DNA of 41,342 nucleotides from Escherichia coli (GTDB lineage Bacteria; Pseudomonadota; Gammaproteobacteria; Enterobacterales; Enterobacteriaceae): NCBI GenBank assembly GCA_026712295.1, contig GCA_026712295.1_4694.1; one strand, given 5' to 3'. The notes beneath the pieces were generated by a model. That model was not told the origin of the DNA, made no database searches, and worked only from the letters and a program-made list of their open reading frames with translations. This document shows, in pieces, positions 1,920 through 41,342 of this stretch. Every line of letters starts with the position of its first letter. The first letter of the stretch is position 1. Position numbers and translations under genes: made by a program.

Positions 1920-2072
1920 TCATTCAGTAGCAGCTAACTCAGCTTCCTTTCGAGCCTTGTTTGCCGCACGGGTACGGGCAGCTTTCTGTTGTGGCGTTAG
2001 CTCTTGCTCAGCTTCAGTAAGGGACTCAGTGTCCCCTACGAGTTTGCGAGAAGTTAAGCCTTGTTGAAAACC
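1920..2072 (-). CDS. 10B: Putative capsid 10B C-terminal extension reached by -1 frameshift
   Basis: Heptamer GGUUUUC (minus strand, 2066..2072) four codons before the 10A stop; the -1 frame stays open ~46 codons to TGA at 1920-1922, just upstream of the terminator. Confidence 0.45.
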   Translation of the reverse strand, partial: GFQQGLTSRKLVGDTESLTEAEQELTPQQKAARTRAANKARKEAELAATE

Positions 2073-3332
2073 AGCGCACCACATGCTTCAGGGCGCAGAC
2101 CACCGTGACCCATAGCATACTTAGCGATAATCTGGTCTGCTTGGAAGTTAGCTCGACGAGCACGTTCCAGTGCCATATCTTTCAGCTTAACAGTACCAAC
2201 GGCAGAGCGGTGATTGAACAGACCGACAACGTTGTCCAGAGCAACACGGGTGTCACCAGAGGAAGTCTTAGGGAACGCATGTTTCTGACCAGTCGGATTT
2301 GCACCCTCTTCTGGACGGTCTTCGCCAGCACCACCAGCAGTCAGATGCGGAACCTCAATAACTTCGAAGCCCATAACGTTGCGGATAGAGCCAGTAGACG
2401 GGTCAATCAGAGCCTGATAGTTTGCAGCGTTAGGCATCAGAGCAGCCAGAATAGCAGAGTAGTTGTCTGGAGTGGTGTAGAACACACGGTCAGCAGACGG
2501 AACATAGTTGCCAGTCAGCTTGGCACGAGCCAGAGTTAACTGTGCGATAATAGCCTGACCCAGCTTAACTTGGTCTCCCCGAAGCTCAGACTGCTTGCCA
2601 ACTTCCAGTACATGAGCCTTACCGAGACCAGCGATGTTCTCGTTAGACGCAGACGGCAGGTTACACAGTTTAGCCATTTCAGCCAGAACCGCGCCATCAG
2701 CAGCCATCGCAAGAGATTCACCCAACTGTGCGGTATACTCGGAGCGCACGTCATAGTGGTTCATTGCGTCTTCGATGTCGTAAATCAGAACGTCAGCAGT
2801 CAGCAGACCATCAATGTTAATGGTACGCTCAGTGTGCTTCATGTCTTTACGTTTGTCATCGAGGTTCTCACCCGGTTGCAGGTAAGCAGCTTTGGTACGA
2901 CCCAGCACAGGGAACTGCGCGGACTTACCGGACTGGATAGAGCGAACAAGGTGTTTGTTCATAGTTACGGAGGTACGGGTAAATGCAGTCAGAACTTCAC
3001 CACCGAAGACCTTCAGGAACAGAGCCAGTTTATCACCAGCGCTCATACCTTTACCTTGGTCTTTAAGTGTGCTTCATGTCTTTACGTTTGTCATCGAGGT
3101 TCTCACCCGGTTGCAGGTAAGCAGCTTTGGTACGACCCAGCACAGGGAACTGCGCGGACTTACCGGACTGGATAGAGCGAACAAGGTGTTTGTTCATAGT
3201 TACGGAGGTACGGGTAAATGCAGTCAGAACTTCACCACCGAAGACCTTCAGGAACAGAGCCAGTTTATCACCAGCGCTCATACCTTTACCTTGGTCTTTA
3301 CCCATCTGTTGTCCACCATTCATGCTAGCCAT
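2054..3332 (-). CDS. 10A: Major capsid protein (gp10A), reading frame interrupted by a 235-bp tandem duplication (track ORFs 3063..3332 and 2054..3046)
   Basis: N-terminus MASMNGGQQMGKDQGKG (T7-tag-like) with RBS AGAAGGAGA; downstream ORF matches T7 gp10A throughout (GLLTADVLIYDIEDAMNHYDVRSEY, RANFQADQIIAKYAMGHGGLRPEA); removing one repeat copy restores a 347-aa frame. Confidence 0.9.
2831..3300. repeat. Perfect tandem duplication, 2 x 235 bp (2831..3065 and 3066..3300) inside gene 10
   Basis: Both copies read identically from agtgtgcttcatgtc to ccttggtcttta; unit length is not a multiple of 3. Confidence 0.95.
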
Positions 3333-3500
3333 GTTGAATCTCCTTCTGTTGATTTAAAGTTTAATGTGTGAGGTACTACTTGAAACGAGTTGGTTCTCAT
3401 TGTGTATCACTCAAAGGGAGCATTCCCACGACAAGCCCGGAAGCCAGATGTCACAGCAACTTAATGGTCTGTGTGACCTCCAATCGTGGGATTCCATCTC

Positions 3501-3523
3501 TCTCCCAATAGTGAGTCGTATTA
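3501..3523 (-). promoter_or_regulatory. T7-type late promoter (phi10-like)
   Basis: Minus strand TAATACGACTCACTATTGGGAGA, one mismatch to the T7 consensus TAATACGACTCACTATAGGGAGA. Confidence 0.85.
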
Positions 3524-4494: not shown

Positions 4495-4517
4495 TCTCCC
4501 ATTAGTGAGTCGTATTA
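4495..4517 (-). promoter_or_regulatory. T7-type promoter (phi9-like)
   Basis: Minus strand TAATACGACTCACTAATGGGAGA. Confidence 0.8.
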
Positions 4518-6136: not shown

Positions 6137-6505
6137 TTAGATATTAAGACCACCGCCAGAACTACGAGCGACACTCAGTGATTTCTTACCGCCAGCACGG
6201 GCTTTCTTCTTACCGGATTCAGTCTGTGCATCATCATCGGAGTCTACATCGTCTTTACTCGGTGGCTCGATAATTTGTGCAGCAGGAGGTGCAGCTTGAA
6301 CGGCAGCAGCGGGTGTCTCAACCACCTGTACATCAGGCTTACCACCACCAGCAAGTGCACCAGCAACGCCACCAACGACCTTACCAGCTTCCTTCCCGAC
6401 CTTCTCGACTGCCTTACCAGTTTCCTTGACTACCTTCTCGATAGGCTTGGTTACTTTCTTGATAGCCTTCTTAACTGATTTGCGAATCTTTTTACCCCAA
6501 CCCAT
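6137..6505 (-). CDS. 7.3: Lysine-rich virion/tail protein gp7.3-like, 122 aa
   Basis: C-terminus ESGKKKARAGGKKSLSVARSSGGGLNI as in T7 gp7.3; AGGAGG RBS. Confidence 0.7.
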   Translation of the reverse strand: MGWGKKIRKSVKKAIKKVTKPIEKVVKETGKAVEKVGKEAGKVVGGVAGALAGGGKPDVQVVETPAAAVQAAPPAAQIIEPPSKDDVDSDDDAQTESGKKKARAGGKKSLSVARSSGGGLNI

Positions 6506-18341: not shown

Positions 18342-18364
18342 TTTCGCAATAGTGAGTCGTATTA
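18342..18364 (-). promoter_or_regulatory. T7-type promoter (phi1.3-like)
   Basis: Minus strand TAATACGACTCACTATTGCGAAA. Confidence 0.7.
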
Positions 18365-19489: not shown

Positions 19490-19512
19490 GCTCCCAATAG
19501 TGAGTCGTATTA
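19490..19512 (-). promoter_or_regulatory. T7-type promoter (phi1.1A-like)
   Basis: Minus strand TAATACGACTCACTATTGGGAGC. Confidence 0.8.
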
Positions 19513-25117: not shown

Positions 25118-25547
25118 GAGGTGACATAAGGTGATAACTCTAGGGTCACTTACAGATAGGGACACAGAGAGGACTACATATAGTGGTCATAAGGTATCAC
25201 TAAGCACCATATCTAGTGGTTACACCTAGAGTTAACCCAATGTCTCACAAAAGGATTGACTTCAGGTAAACCATGAGTTACCATAGAGGAAGGCTCTTTG
25301 GGTGGACTGAAGGAGGCCATAGGGGGGGGGGAGAGGTGACATAAGGTGATAACTCTAGGGTCACTTACAGATAGGGACACAGAGAGGACTACATATAGTG
25401 GTCATAAGGTATCACTAAGCACCATATCTAGTGGTTACACCTAGAGTTAACCCAATGTCTCACAAAAGGATTGACTTCAGGTAAACCATGAGTTACCATA
25501 GAGGAAGGCTCTTTGGGTGGACTGAAGGAGGCCATAGGGGGGGGACT
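25118..25547. repeat. Two adjacent copies of the direct terminal repeat (~214 bp each, 25118..25332 and 25333..25544); junction marks the linear genome ends
   Basis: Copies identical except terminal G-run (10 G vs 8 G); internal motif ACAGATAGGGACACAGAGAG is shared with the T7 terminal repeat; CATAAGG heptamers flank both sides. Confidence 0.8.
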
Positions 25548-25952: not shown

Positions 25953-26108
25953 AGAGCGTCCTCCTTGTTATACTTGATGGTTACACTGATAGTAGGGATG
26001 TAATTACTATTACCATCATCCCTCACTGTAAGGTCTCTAAGAGTTAGTCACTAAGTATGCACTTTGCATATGCAGTCTTTAAGTGTCTTTAAGTTGTCTT
26101 AGGGTGCC

Positions 26109-26131
26109 CTTCCCAATAGTGAGTCGTATTA
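26109..26131 (-). promoter_or_regulatory. T7-type promoter (phiOR-like), duplicated copy
   Basis: Minus strand TAATACGACTCACTATTGGGAAG. Confidence 0.7.
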
Positions 26132-26397
26132 ATTTCTTCATGTATATCAGTAAGTTACTTAACGGTAACGTAGCGGTACTAAGTGCTTACCTATGCACCT
26201 TTCCCGCATACTTATCTATTACCACTCAATGAAGCAGCTAGAGTCTCCATCATCCTCATAGTAGATGTCCACGCCACCAACATCGTAGCTATGGATAGCA
26301 TCACCACCAATGGTCTGTTTCTCCATGTGGTGTTCAAGGAACTCAAGGGTCATCTCTTCTTCAATCTTTAAGTGTCTTTAAGTTGTCTTAGGGTGCC

Positions 26398-26420
26398 CTT
26401 CCCAATAGTGAGTCGTATTA
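26398..26420 (-). promoter_or_regulatory. T7-type promoter (phiOR-like, right-end promoter downstream of gene 19)
   Basis: Minus strand TAATACGACTCACTATTGGGAAG. Confidence 0.75.
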
Positions 26421-26507
26421 ATTTCTTCATGTATATCAGTAAGTTACTTAACGGTAACGTAGCGGTACTAAGTGCTTACCTATGCACCTTTCCCGCATAC
26501 TTATCTA

Positions 26508-28265
26508 TTACCACTCAATGAAGCAGCTAGAGTCTCCATCATCCTCATAGTAGATGTCCACGCCACCAACATCGTAGCTATGGATAGCATCACCACCAAT
26601 GGTCTGTTTCTCCATGTGGTGTTCAAGGAACTCAAGGGTCATCTCTTCTTCACCTACACGGCTGTCCACAAGCATCCCTTCACGAAGGAACTCGATACCC
26701 AATGCGATAGCATCAATGCGGTCATCGTGTGCCACAGCGCCTCGCTCACGGGTCATACGGGTCATCTGATAGAACGCACTGTAGCGGACATCATGTTTCC
26801 CATCAAGGTCACGAGCAGTCTGGTAGTCCTCACGGATAACCTCATCACGAATGACCAGCTTGTGGGCACCCATCAACGGTTCGATAGTATCGCAGATTCG
26901 CATCTCCTTCATGCCCTTAGCACGGATTTCCTCTAAGGCACACTTATGGTGCTTCAGGAGAATCGGAGAGAAAATCTTACCGAACATACCGTCACCGAAG
27001 TTGGACTCGTGGACTACTGTCTGTACCTTCCACTGCTTGGCCTTCTTAGCGAGCTTCTCTAGGGTAGCATCATCGTAACCACCACGGAACCCACCGACTT
27101 CCATCAAGTAGATATAACCATTAAGTGAGTAGAGGACTGCGTACCCGGTCTCATCCTTACCACGACCACTTGGGTCAATGACCAGAATCTTAGACTGATA
27201 CTCAGCGGTACGAGAAGAGCACGTATGGAACGCATGGATGTCGTCACCCTTCAGACCAACGTTAGGGAGTTCCTCATTGCGGTTCTGACGGTTCGGCAAC
27301 CACTGGTAAGACAATGGGGCACGTTCAGGGTCCACAGCGCACACGATAGCATCACGGAGTCGTAGCGGGTACTTCTCGGCATCACTAAGGTTCGGGTTAA
27401 GCATGAACTGAAGTGTGTAGCCAGCTTTACCATATTCGAGTTCACGTTCACGGAGGTCATCCATATCGAATCGAACAGGGTCAGTAGGTTGACCGCGAAG
27501 TAACTCATAGCCTTCATCATACTCTTGCTTGAGCATAGGAGCCAGTCGGTCGCCATAATAGAGAGCCTCAGCGTCATTACGTGGATACTGTGCTGGCCAG
27601 ATTACTGTGCTGTACCCTTTGTTATCCTCAAGTTCCTTGTAGAGCGTCATCTCAGTTTGAGGTGTGCCAAGGTAGATAACACGAGAGGTAGGCAGCGGCT
27701 TAAGTAATGCAGCGAACTCAGTTACCAACGTCCAGAGCTTCTCACGAGCAGAACTCGTAGAGCTATTACCGGGAACCTCAACGTCATCTGCGATAATGAT
27801 GTCAGCACGGCTACCAGTTAACTGACCAGTGATACCTACAGACTTCACAGAGGGTGAGTGGTCGGGTTTAGCCAAGCCAACATCGAAGCTAATCACGGAG
27901 TCACGCTGTCCCGGTCGAGGTTTCAACTCAGAGAGGAACGGAAGGAGGTCGATGATGTTCTTGATGAAGATGGAGTTAGCATCAGCACGTTCCTTAGAGG
28001 CAGACACGATGAGAACCTTAAGTTGAGGGTCTCGCCATAAGACCCACACGACGAACGCACAGGTGATAAAGGACTTGCCGATACCACGGAACGCCTGAAG
28101 GATAAACTTCTTGTGGTCGCCGTTAGCGAGTGTACGTGCCATATCAATCTGACACTTGGTTGGTTTAGGTAAGTTCAGAGCCTTCCATAAGACGAACAGG
28201 AAGGCCACGAAGTCACCCTTAAGTTGCGCCACGATGAGCGCATTCTTGTTTGCTTGAGTAGACAT
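26508..28265 (-). CDS. 19: Terminase large subunit (DNA maturase B) gp19, 585 aa
   Basis: Walker A-like GIGKS, strong similarity to T7 gp19 (one residue shorter than T7); GGAGG RBS. Confidence 0.95.
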
Positions 28266-29896: not shown

Positions 29897-32105
29897 TTAT
29901 TGGTTTTGAACTAAGATTCGCGTAGGGACTGAACGGGCGTCTTTGTCGTTACGGAAAGTTCTGCCGTTGTTGGAGATTGTGAACTTCAACCAACCACCAT
30001 CAGACGCGATGAAGTAAGCCGCATTGTCACCAATAGGAACGGCGTTCCAGCGACCATTGGTCTGAATCCAGATGGTTCTCCAACGAACATCCTGTGAGAG
30101 ACCTACCGAGACACCACCACCAGCATAGCCTTTCCAGACCTCAGCCCACCCAGCATTCTTATTGACGTATCGACCATCAGCTTGCGCTTGAGTTAACCGT
30201 CCATTGACTAGGTTGTTTACTTCGCTTTTATTGTAGGCATGTTCTCCAAGGCGTTTGTTGACCCAACCGTCGATGTAAGAATCATACTTCGTGATGTATA
30301 AGTTACCATCTGGTGGAATGTACCAGCCTGAGTTGGATGTTAATGTACCATTTGAATCAAACGTATACTCCCTGTTAGCTGCCTGACCAAAGTTAAGCCT
30401 CCACGCCCCAGCGCCGGGGTCTTTGTAAAGATAACCATCGGTGTAGTTATCGCTGGTTTTCATTTGAATATGTCGACGAGCAGAGTTAATCATCAGCAGG
30501 TTCTGTGAGCGAGTCTGTAAGATTCCAGTGAAGTCACCTGATTGTCCAACCGTAAGCCCACCAGCAGCCTCCATATGTCCATTCACTCGCATCTGGCAAA
30601 ATGTGTCGTTAAGGTTAGCCTTCTGGATATACATATAGTACCCATTACCGCTACCACCTAACTCAAATACGTTTGCACGTCCTTGGTCATTCCCCCATAC
30701 GAAGAACCTCATATTTCTATCAGCGAAGTTCTGGTTCACAAGCTGCAACGAGTTCCTTGTTAACACGCTAAACGATTGACCTGCGCCAGCCCTTACTTCC
30801 TTTTCACCAGTAATCTGTCCGGGTGCTACAACATCATTCTTAAAAACAACGTTCTCACCATTAACCGCTTTAATGGTTCCCGCTAAGTTATTCATATTCC
30901 CTAACTTGTCAGCCTCGGTCTTTGCACGGTCAGCTTCACTCTTGGAGCGGTTTGCCTCAGTGTTGGCTCTGTCAGCATGTCCATCAGCGGTAGCAACGTG
31001 TGCAGCGGCTTTGGCAACCTCAGCAGCAGCCTTAGTCACTTCTCCGGCAGCACGATTGGCCTCATCACGGGCACGATTGGCCTCAGAGTTAGAACGGTCA
31101 GCTTGCTTCTTGGCCTCAATTCTTAAAAACAACGTTCTCACCATTAACCGCTTTAATGGTTCCCGCTAAGTTATTCATATTCCCTAACTTGTCAGCCTCG
31201 GTCTTTGCACGGTCAGCTTCACTCTTGGAGCGGTTTGCCTCAGTGTTGGCTCTGTCAGCATGTCCATCAGCGGTAGCAACGTGTGCAGCGGCTTTGGCAA
31301 CCTCAGCAGCAGCCTTAGTCACTTCTCCGGCAGCACGATTGGCCTCATCACGGGCACGATTGGCCTCAGAGTTAGAACGGTCAGCTTGCTTCTTGGCCTC
31401 AGCTACACTTGCGGTCATACTATCAGCATAACCTTTAGCTCGGTTAGCCTCAGAGTTGGAACGGTCAGCTTGCTTCTTGGACTCAACCGCCTGTGCCGTA
31501 GAGACACCTGCCTGTTGGGTTGAGCGGTCAGCTTCACGTTTTGCACGGTCAGCTTCATCTCGCGATCGGTTAGCCTCAGTGTTAGAGCGGTTAGCGTGTT
31601 CATTGGCCTTGTTAACAGCGTTCCAAGCAGACGACTCGCGCTCTTTTACTTGCTTCAGAGGGACAGCATCGTAGTCACTGGTAGCGAACGCTAGGTTCAC
31701 AATCTTACGACCACGGGCATCCAAGTGACCATCATTGTTGACACCAATGGTATCCGCAGTTAGGTCTCGTGCCTCTTCAGCTACGTGCAGCGTCTGAATC
31801 TGTGAGATGTTAAGGTCATACGCACGAAGGATTGAGCCATCAGCAAAGTCAACCAGACGGTCGGTTGCAGAAGTGAATCGACGAATCTCAATCATCTGAT
31901 AACCATCGGCAGCAGTCCACGCACGGGAGGTTGTGATTTGGGTCTTAGTGGTAAAGCGATAGTCCTGATTGAGAACCAACTCTTTACGGTCTTTCCCGAT
32001 GAGTGTCACTTGGACGAACTTACGTGCTAAATACTCAAAGGTAATCGTGAAGTTCACGGCACCGTTCAGCGGGTAAGTACGTACAGTGGAAATTTTGTTA
32101 GCCAT
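29897..32105 (-). CDS. 17: Tail fibre protein gp17, reading frame interrupted by a 283-bp tandem duplication (track ORFs 31116..32105 and 29897..31144)
   Basis: N-terminus MANKISTVRTYPLNGAVNFTITFEYLARKFV and DRLVDFADGSILRAYDLNISQIQTLHVAEEARDLTADTIGVNNDGHLDARGRKIVNL match T7 gp17; C-terminus YFIASDGGWL; removing one repeat copy gives a 641-aa frame. Confidence 0.88.
30836..31401. repeat. Perfect tandem duplication, 2 x 283 bp (30836..31118 and 31119..31401) inside gene 17
   Basis: Both copies identical from attcttaaaaacaacg to gcttgcttcttggcctca; unit length not a multiple of 3. Confidence 0.95.
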
Positions 32106-40038: not shown

Positions 40039-41342
40039 TTAGATACCAGAAGAACGACGCAGGTAGTTACCCTCCCAGCCACAACCAATAACGTTCAGTG
40101 GCGTAGTATGGTCAGAGATAATACGTACTTCATTCAACTGTGCGTTGCCAGCGACCGGGAAGCGGAACTGACCAGTACCAACATTAAGCCCACCAGAGCG
40201 TAACGCATTGGAACCCAAGCGAGCACCCGCCATGTCATAGCTGAACAGTCGAGAGGTGTTCTCCACTTCTACAGTGAATGCACCAGAGTCCTCATAGTTC
40301 ACCCACGCTCGGCGTAACTGCAAGCGCCCAATACCCTCGGTAGCTGTCGAGCCATCATCAGCAGTCTTCTTGATGAGGAACTTAGAGAACACATAACGGA
40401 AGTTGATAGCCAAGCCAACGTAGATTGTCTCATCCTCACGGTTCCCACTCATTGACAACACAGGGACACCATTAGGCCAACCACCACGCGGAGGGTCGAA
40501 CCACGAGACCTGACCATCAGAGGCCACAATGTAGAACCTACCAGTCCAATATTGCATCCCATAGATGTCTACAGGCTTCACAGTGGTAGTGTAAGTGTCA
40601 TCGTTGTAGGCACCTTTAGGAATCACATACTTTATCTTGTTGTCGATGTACAGCCGATATGGTTCATCGTTGAAGTCAATGGAGTTCTTCGTAAAGTGTG
40701 CTCGGCACATCCAAGTGTGGGACTGGTTGCGCAACACAAGGTACATCGTTGAGCCGATAGAGTCACAAGCCAGAACCGTTACGTTACTTCCAAGTTCCCA
40801 ATGTGACCACGACTGTTGAGCAATCTCTTCGTTGAGGTACAGGAATTTGTACAGGAAGATTTTACTCGGAGCGTTCGCAGAGAGCACGGAGATAAAGTTC
40901 TCAGTACCGGAGCCACGAATGGAGAACACACCGTTCGGAATGTAACTTGGAACGTGAGCACTCATATCCTCAGCAGACTTCACGGAGCTAACATCCTGTA
41001 CCGCATAGTAACGGTTAAGTGACGTATAGGAAGCACGAGGTGACGCAAAGTACACACCACGCCCAACGCCAAAAGGTCTCGCTCGGTCTGACACATCGAA
41101 CTCTGTCGTGAGGTTCAACTCTACTGACTTCGGTGAGAGGATACCTTGAGCAGACAACACGAACTGTGCTTGGTCTGACCATAGGAGCAACTCTTCGGAG
41201 AACGGTACAGCGTACTTCAGGATAGAGATTCGGTTATGGGACACAGCCACGTCAATTGGGTCATCGTCGGACAGGTTAGCCACGGACGCAGGGAACAGTG
41301 AGAAATACTTTGATGTACGGGACATTACAATGTTCTCACCAG
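40039..41342 (-). CDS. 12: Tail tubular protein B (gp12), C-terminal part; N-terminal part is at 1..1234 across the circular wrap
   Basis: C-terminus GCGWEGNYLRRSSGI identical to T7 gp12; the track start at 41325 is an artefact of a t/g mismatch with the window-start copy (CTG Leu at 140-142). Confidence 0.9.
   Translation of the reverse strand, partial: GENIVMSRTSKYFSLFPASVANLSDDDPIDVAVSHNRISILKYAVPFSEELLLWSDQAQFVLSAQGILSPKSVELNLTTEFDVSDRARPFGVGRGVYFASPRASYTSLNRYYAVQDVSSVKSAEDMSAHVPSYIPNGVFSIRGSGTENFISVLSANAPSKIFLYKFLYLNEEIAQQSWSHWELGSNVTVLACDSIGSTMYLVLRNQSHTWMCRAHFTKNSIDFNDEPYRLYIDNKIKYVIPKGAYNDDTYTTTVKPVDIYGMQYWTGRFYIVASDGQVSWFDPPRGGWPNGVPVLSMSGNREDETIYVGLAINFRYVFSKFLIKKTADDGSTATEGIGRLQLRRAWVNYEDSGAFTVEVENTSRLFSYDMAGARLGSNALRSGGLNVGTGQFRFPVAGNAQLNEVRIISDHTTPLNVIGCGWEGNYLRRSSGI
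41184..41342. repeat. Window-edge overlap: 41184..41342 repeats 1..159 (circular wrap), one mismatch
   Basis: 159-nt identity except g at 142 versus t at 41325. Confidence 0.95.

Follow-up and report, generated by a model that had tools for sequence, protein, structure and literature searches.

The window, by which we mean the whole stretch of 41,342 nucleotides analysed here, is a contig of a T7-like Berlinvirus (BA14/285P/Kvp1 group), given in circularly permuted form and as the reverse complement. Over the whole genome it matches Enterobacter phage PZJ0206 best (about 96%), and the highest local identity is with Salmonella phage BSP161, at 99.1% over genes 9-10. The gene order 8-9-10-11-12, the gene-10 promoter and the ribosome-binding site are the same in the window as in its Berlinvirus relatives (BA14, 285P, Kvp1, BSP161 and PZJ0206). 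The split of gene 10 into reading frames of 89 and 330 amino acids, however, is found in the window only and was seen in no Berlinvirus relative. Gene 10, encoding the major capsid protein, lies on the minus strand, and it is a tandem duplication of 235 bp that divides it in two. The features of the locus are as follows:

2831..3065, copy 1 of the 235-bp unit, the downstream copy on the coding (minus) strand
3066..3300, copy 2 of the 235-bp unit, the upstream copy on the coding strand
3065..3065, join position of the 235-bp duplication, base A on the plus strand
3063..3332, minus strand, truncated N-terminal gene-10 ORF of 89 aa (MASMNGGQQMG...KDMKHT*), with the true start at 3332
2054..3046, minus strand, 330-aa ORF corresponding to gp10 residues 18-347 (PF21703, Gp10A-like)
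3338..3345, minus strand, gene-10 ribosome-binding site (AAGGAG; AAGGAGAT), upstream of the true ATG
3501..3523, minus strand, phage RNA-polymerase promoter upstream of gene 10 (TAATACGACTCACTATTGGGAGA)

The original prediction of a perfect tandem duplication at 2831-3300 was borne out by TRF, by a repeat search and by base-by-base comparison: positions 2831-3065 and 3066-3300 match at 100% over 235 bp with zero indels, as exactly two units that directly adjoin each other head to tail. An exact repeat of this kind is not attributable to chance. Extension base by base from the unit boundaries found 0 nt of microhomology. The unit spans gene-10 nucleotides 33-267, that is, codons 11-89, and copy 1 can be read as an overlap of 234 nt (2831-3064) followed by the join base at 3065.

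The reading frames confirm that the capsid frame ends after 89 codons and that 330 codons restart at an internal Met. The TAA stop of the 89-aa ORF is formed by the first three bases past the join, and the 330-aa ORF begins at the native Met18 and matches the Pfam family of Gp10A-like major capsid proteins (PF21703) with E = 1e-107, over profile positions 1-279 of 279. The junction TAA lies 16 nt upstream of the Met18 ATG, which is preceded by AAGG at -11 to -8 and AAAGGT at -6 to -1; the description of this internal Met as lacking a ribosome-binding site was therefore slightly overstated. A single uninterrupted gene-10 ORF, running from the start linked to the ribosome-binding site through to the native stop, is absent from the window as written. 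Deleting one copy in silico restored, as had been anticipated, a 347-aa T7-like capsid protein: the resulting ORF of 1044 nt encodes a full-length Gp10A-like product, and its only difference from the intact gp10 of the sibling contig JAJCTS010000045.1 is at residue 277, where the window has K and the sibling E.

The gene-10 promoter is one of several in the window with a T7-type core, in which TAATACGACTCACTA is followed by TT or AT and then by GGGAGA, where T7 has TAGGGAGA; this difference from T7 at -2/-1 is a small, lineage-specific one.

3501-3523, 4495-4517, 26109-26131, 26398-26420, 18342-18364 and 19490-19512, minus strand, promoters of T7-core type

The duplication in gene 10 is one of four perfect tandem duplications in the window, with units of 212/215, 235, 283 and 288/289 bp; the other three had gone unnoticed in the original prediction. 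The three others are:

25118..25544, second duplication, two 212-nt copies with GGA between them, beside a G8-G10 run
26076..26652, third duplication, two 288-nt copies with a single A between them
30836..31401, fourth duplication, exact, 283 bp, within the tail-fibre gene 17

The third duplication takes in the 3' end of gene 19 together with a phiOR-like promoter, which is thereby doubled; gene 19 itself remains intact, with its stop at 26508. The fourth splits gene 17 into ORFs of 329 and 415 aa, and removal of one copy gives 641 aa; its join is seamless, with 0 nt of microhomology. Neither 235 nor 283 is a multiple of 3, and gp10 and gp17, both essential, are broken on one molecule; with two independent lethal lesions, the sequence as it stands could not belong to a viable phage. 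Two of the joins carry fillers, of 1 nt (A) and 3 nt (GGA), and those of the 235- and 283-bp duplications are seamless. Nothing convincing in the way of a sequence motif or microhomology was found at the boundaries of any of the four window duplications. All four joins (3065, 25332, 26364 and 31118) are A on the plus strand (P about 0.0037, at 24.7% A), as expected if a single N had been stored or filled as A, and the window contains no N characters. If the join A is taken as N, the overlaps become 234, 212 (plus two spurious G at the homopolymer), 288 and 282 nt.

The window is also redundant at its ends: positions 1-159 match 41184-41342 except at position 142, where G stands against T (the sibling assemblies described below have T). 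This end match is an unmerged overlap at the closure of a circular contig, of the same kind as the duplications. The circular unit is 41,183 bp, or 40,161 bp without the four duplications. Redundant ends occur as well in the GenBank record of PZJ0206 (MT625440.1), the nearest relative with a complete genome, in which the ends overlap by an exact 392 bp, longer than the annotated 194-bp terminal repeat of BA14; this overlap may be assembly redundancy instead of a true terminal repeat.

Left and right terminal repeats brought side by side would resemble a tandem repeat. The second duplication overlaps the homologue of the direct terminal repeat of BA14 (194 bp, EU734171), and we considered whether the 215-bp repeat could represent the juxtaposed terminal repeats of a rotated linear genome. 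BA14 positions 1-194 correspond to window positions 25568->25373, whereas the repeated unit is 25544->25333: it starts 24 nt inside the terminal repeat (TCTCATAG...) and extends ~40 nt past its end, and with boundaries off by 24 nt and ~40 nt this candidate was rejected as an exact account of the repeat. The comparison with terminal repeats is in any case irrelevant to the gene-10 duplication. A G8 run (C8 on the coding strand) lies at 25322-25331 and 25537-25544, 24 nt inside the terminal-repeat homologue, and its length is 8, 9 or 10 bases across copies and assemblies. JAJCTQ010000053.1 ends inside the G-run at 25537-25544, and a piece in JAJCTS starts at the homopolymer where the 212-nt copy starts; contig ends at this run in JAJCTQ, JAJCTS and the window mean that piece ends recur there.

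The same phage is present in five E. coli draft assemblies (GCA_026712305, 325, 335, 415 and 435, with WGS prefixes, in matching order, JAJCTQ, JAJCTP, JAJCTS, JAJCTU and JAJCTT), located by searching for proteins identical to its portal, scaffold and terminase proteins. These five siblings are 99.8-100% identical to the window over long aligned stretches, and at each of the four window duplication sites that they cover they have one copy; gene 10 is called intact, at 347 aa, in JAJCTS and JAJCTU. The real phage almost certainly carries one 235-bp unit and an ordinary intact 347-aa T7-type capsid gene.

The siblings have tandem duplications of their own at other positions, at least eight of them, in JAJCTS, JAJCTP, JAJCTT and JAJCTU: copies of 205, 210 and 226 bp are exact, those of 271, 338 and 373 bp have 1-3 mismatches, and a further one measures 314 bp. 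Every sibling duplication has exactly one N at the join between its copies; such N-joined duplications accounted for seven of the 11 single-N sites inspected, with one more in JAJCTU. An N between identical blocks means that the pieces were linked by scaffolding with their overlap unrecognised, and that the join was not read through. One of these duplications divides the essential RNA polymerase gene into ORFs of 434 and 527 aa, and in JAJCTQ the portal and capsid genes are frameshifted by 1-nt indels. The products of the sibling contigs of this lytic T7-like phage are annotated as E. coli proteins, and between them the N-joined false duplications and the frameshifting 1-nt indels leave the RNA polymerase, portal, capsid and tail-fibre genes split.

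Wider searches returned single copies. A 40-mer from within the unit occurs once each in nine IMG/VR and six metagenome contigs, and all 15 of these Berlinvirus contigs align as single-copy; a 43-mer across the junction is absent from IMG/VR. There were no 100-400-bp tandem duplications in BSP161 or PZJ0206. The within-unit 40-mer was found in 0 contigs of the GTDB genome set, megablast of the region gave no match among complete E. coli genomes, and against a plasmid collection it gave a single match, at 90.7%, from Yersinia pestis. Exact-product look-ups with the 89-aa, 330-aa and 415-aa proteins, and with a window-specific 185-aa protein, found none on record, and a literature search on the WGS prefixes, assembly accessions and locus tag found no relevant paper.

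Two regions vary among assemblies of this phage in other ways. At the tip of the tail fibre (29937-30126, the 3' end of gene 17, minus strand) a mutational hot spot is seen: at least 10 sites vary among the window and five siblings that are otherwise 99.8-100% identical, and several of these sites are multi-allelic. Several siblings break there, or carry mismatched N-joined duplications. This cluster is suggestive of host-range evolution in a phage-E. coli co-culture, and it is likely to be the genuine biological signal of the window. Immediately upstream of the portal gene, the ORF at 6137..6505 (122 aa, minus strand) shows a length polymorphism of 63 nt at 6302-6365, in a lysine/alanine-rich region of 21/33-nt repeats: its product has 122 aa in the window and in JAJCTU, 100 aa in JAJCTS and 107 aa in JAJCTT. 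The polymorphism may reflect genuine slippage in the repeats, or it may be one more effect of assembly.

Taken together, we regard the 235-bp duplication as very probably a false duplication produced by scaffolding or assembly, and no biological feature. The original prediction had offered three origins (an artefact, a defective genome or a packaged variant) without choosing among them; the artefact, which it listed first, is the one we retain, because the siblings are single-copy at this site and have N-joined duplications elsewhere, and because the window holds three more duplications, and the other two origins went unsupported. What is seen directly is that the two copies are identical, that every relative has a single copy, and that the siblings carry duplications joined by N. 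From these we infer that the window joins were made by the same process as the sibling joins, and that the A bases at the joins stand for N. The phage genome would have been assembled as several pieces with ends overlapping by roughly 160-370 bp, and a scaffolding or gap-closing step would have concatenated neighbouring pieces without merging them, leaving each overlap present twice in tandem; the results in the window would be the joins at 3065, 25332, 26364 and 31118, with the 159-nt end match as a fifth overlap. The single-N placeholder seen in the siblings would then have become A in the window, most likely through N-to-A encoding or gap filling. Some observations count against the artefact. 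The window has no N and its 235- and 283-bp joins are seamless, such that on the sequence alone spanning reads are possible; the split products and the window-specific protein match nothing on record; and the immediate stops in both broken genes are accounted for solely as a post hoc coincidence.

These stops deserve comment. In gene 10 and in gene 17 alike, the first triplet past the join is a stop (TAA at 3063-3065 and TGA at 31116-31118). Among simulated random out-of-frame duplications of 200-300 bp, an immediate stop arose in about 4% of cases in gene 10 and about 5% in gene 17, and the joint chance of both is about 0.002. Design or selection behind the stops was considered and rejected: the observation is post hoc, and the starts of the sibling pieces show no pattern of stop triplets. 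We treat the immediate stops at both joins as a post hoc coincidence.

It is very unlikely that the window records a real minority or defective variant of any description. In its general form such a reading, to which we give marginally less weight still, places a real tandem duplication in phage genomes that are defective or in the minority, or in an intermediate of replication or recombination. Wild-type phage in a densely infected culture would complement such a genome, and reads across its junction would have put a loop into the assembly graph, through which the assembler passed a single time. The phage is evidently replicating and evolving in the E. coli samples, to judge from the tail-fibre tip hot spot, two of the window joins are seamless, and phages under coevolution do acquire genuine tandem duplications (PMC6365445). 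Against this stand four independent duplications, two of them lethal, on one contig, and the finding that the set of duplications differs from one sibling sample to the next, the N at their joins marking that they were not read through. The gene-10 duplication is also out of frame, unlike the documented adaptive case (PMC6365445), and its junction occurs in no other contig in the IMG/VR and metagenome searches. There is, moreover, no microhomology at any boundary; rearrangements in T7 usually use short direct repeats. A narrower version, in which a real variant in a replicating population is a defective or semi-functional genome that stops at the junction, restarts at Met18 and makes capsid protein without its first 17 residues, is most improbable; if it were true, read-length-scale duplications would arise often across the phage genome during E. 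coli co-culture. That the variant should be viable, with translation stopping at the junction TAA and re-initiating 16 nt downstream at Met18 by means of the Shine-Dalgarno-like AAGG element, is barely conceivable, as is the set of products it calls for, a functional capsid protein without residues 1-17 together with an 89-aa N-terminal fragment. The arrangement has the stop exactly at the junction, the next ATG in the native frame behind a weak Shine-Dalgarno element at suitable spacing, and a 330-aa ORF that keeps the whole Gp10A-like Pfam domain (positions 1-279). However, the tail-fibre gene is frameshifted on the same contig, and its N- and C-terminal halves could not be rejoined by re-initiation; all of the evidence for an artefact applies equally. 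The immediate stops are the sole observation that sustains a termination-reinitiation reading, and such a reading cannot rescue the split tail fibre.

A different source of error would be the addition of the duplications after assembly, by manual or in-silico construction, for example through concatenation when the contig was closed or rotated, or by deliberate editing. We consider this highly improbable, if somewhat less so than the narrower version of a real variant, and it is likewise non-biological. Consistent with it, the split products and the window-specific protein are on record nowhere, the four unit sizes fall in a narrow band of 212-289 bp, and the window departs, in both rotation and strand, from the way in which T7-like genomes are conventionally presented. 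But the public siblings natively carry the same class of duplication with N joins, which makes an extra step unnecessary, and the fillers (GGA by a homopolymer, and a single A), like the mismatched 159-nt end overlap, resemble the output of an assembler more than tidy editing.

With an assembly artefact as the preferred explanation, the practical value of these observations is in quality control: false tandem duplications on the scale of read lengths are present both in this contig and in its sibling public E. coli drafts. They create split "pseudogenes" (capsid, tail-fibre and RNA polymerase) and lengthen the genome by about 1 kb, and they would mislead anyone who draws on these records to catalogue phage genes, count pseudogenes or survey duplications. 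A single N, or a substitute A, between identical blocks is a quick flag for an unmerged overlap.

Two further known systems bear comparison with the locus. A genuine adaptive tandem duplication has been described in the tail fibre of phage EfV12-phi1 (Wandro et al., 2019; PMC6365445), and it shares with the window the setting of phage-bacterium co-culture and a head-to-tail duplication inside a virion structural gene. The EfV12-phi1 duplication is in frame, recurs in replicate populations, has raised coverage and is spanned by long reads (PMC6365445), whereas that of the window is out of frame, comes from a single assembly, shares its contig with further lethal duplication, and is of a kind that is N-joined in the siblings. 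The closer parallel is with false duplications in draft assemblies (Kelley and Salzberg, 2010, PMC2864568), which have been described at scaffold joins and gaps (Ko et al., 2022, Genome Biol 23:205, PMC9516828). As described there, the class has in common with the window adjacent copies, their absence from independent assemblies, and genes that are falsely split or gained; it also has a gap placeholder or unsupported filler between the copies, which corresponds to the N in the siblings and may correspond to the A or other fillers in the window, the gap character itself not being visible in the window. That account concerns vertebrate genomes at the scale of kilobases to megabases, and here we deal with a 40-kb phage in bacterial drafts and overlaps of 159-373 bp, at the scale of read lengths. 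In the terms used there, the sibling duplications with 1-3 mismatches, in the polymorphic tail-fibre tip, correspond to the "heterotype" class, and the identical copies in the window to the "homotype" class (PMC9516828).
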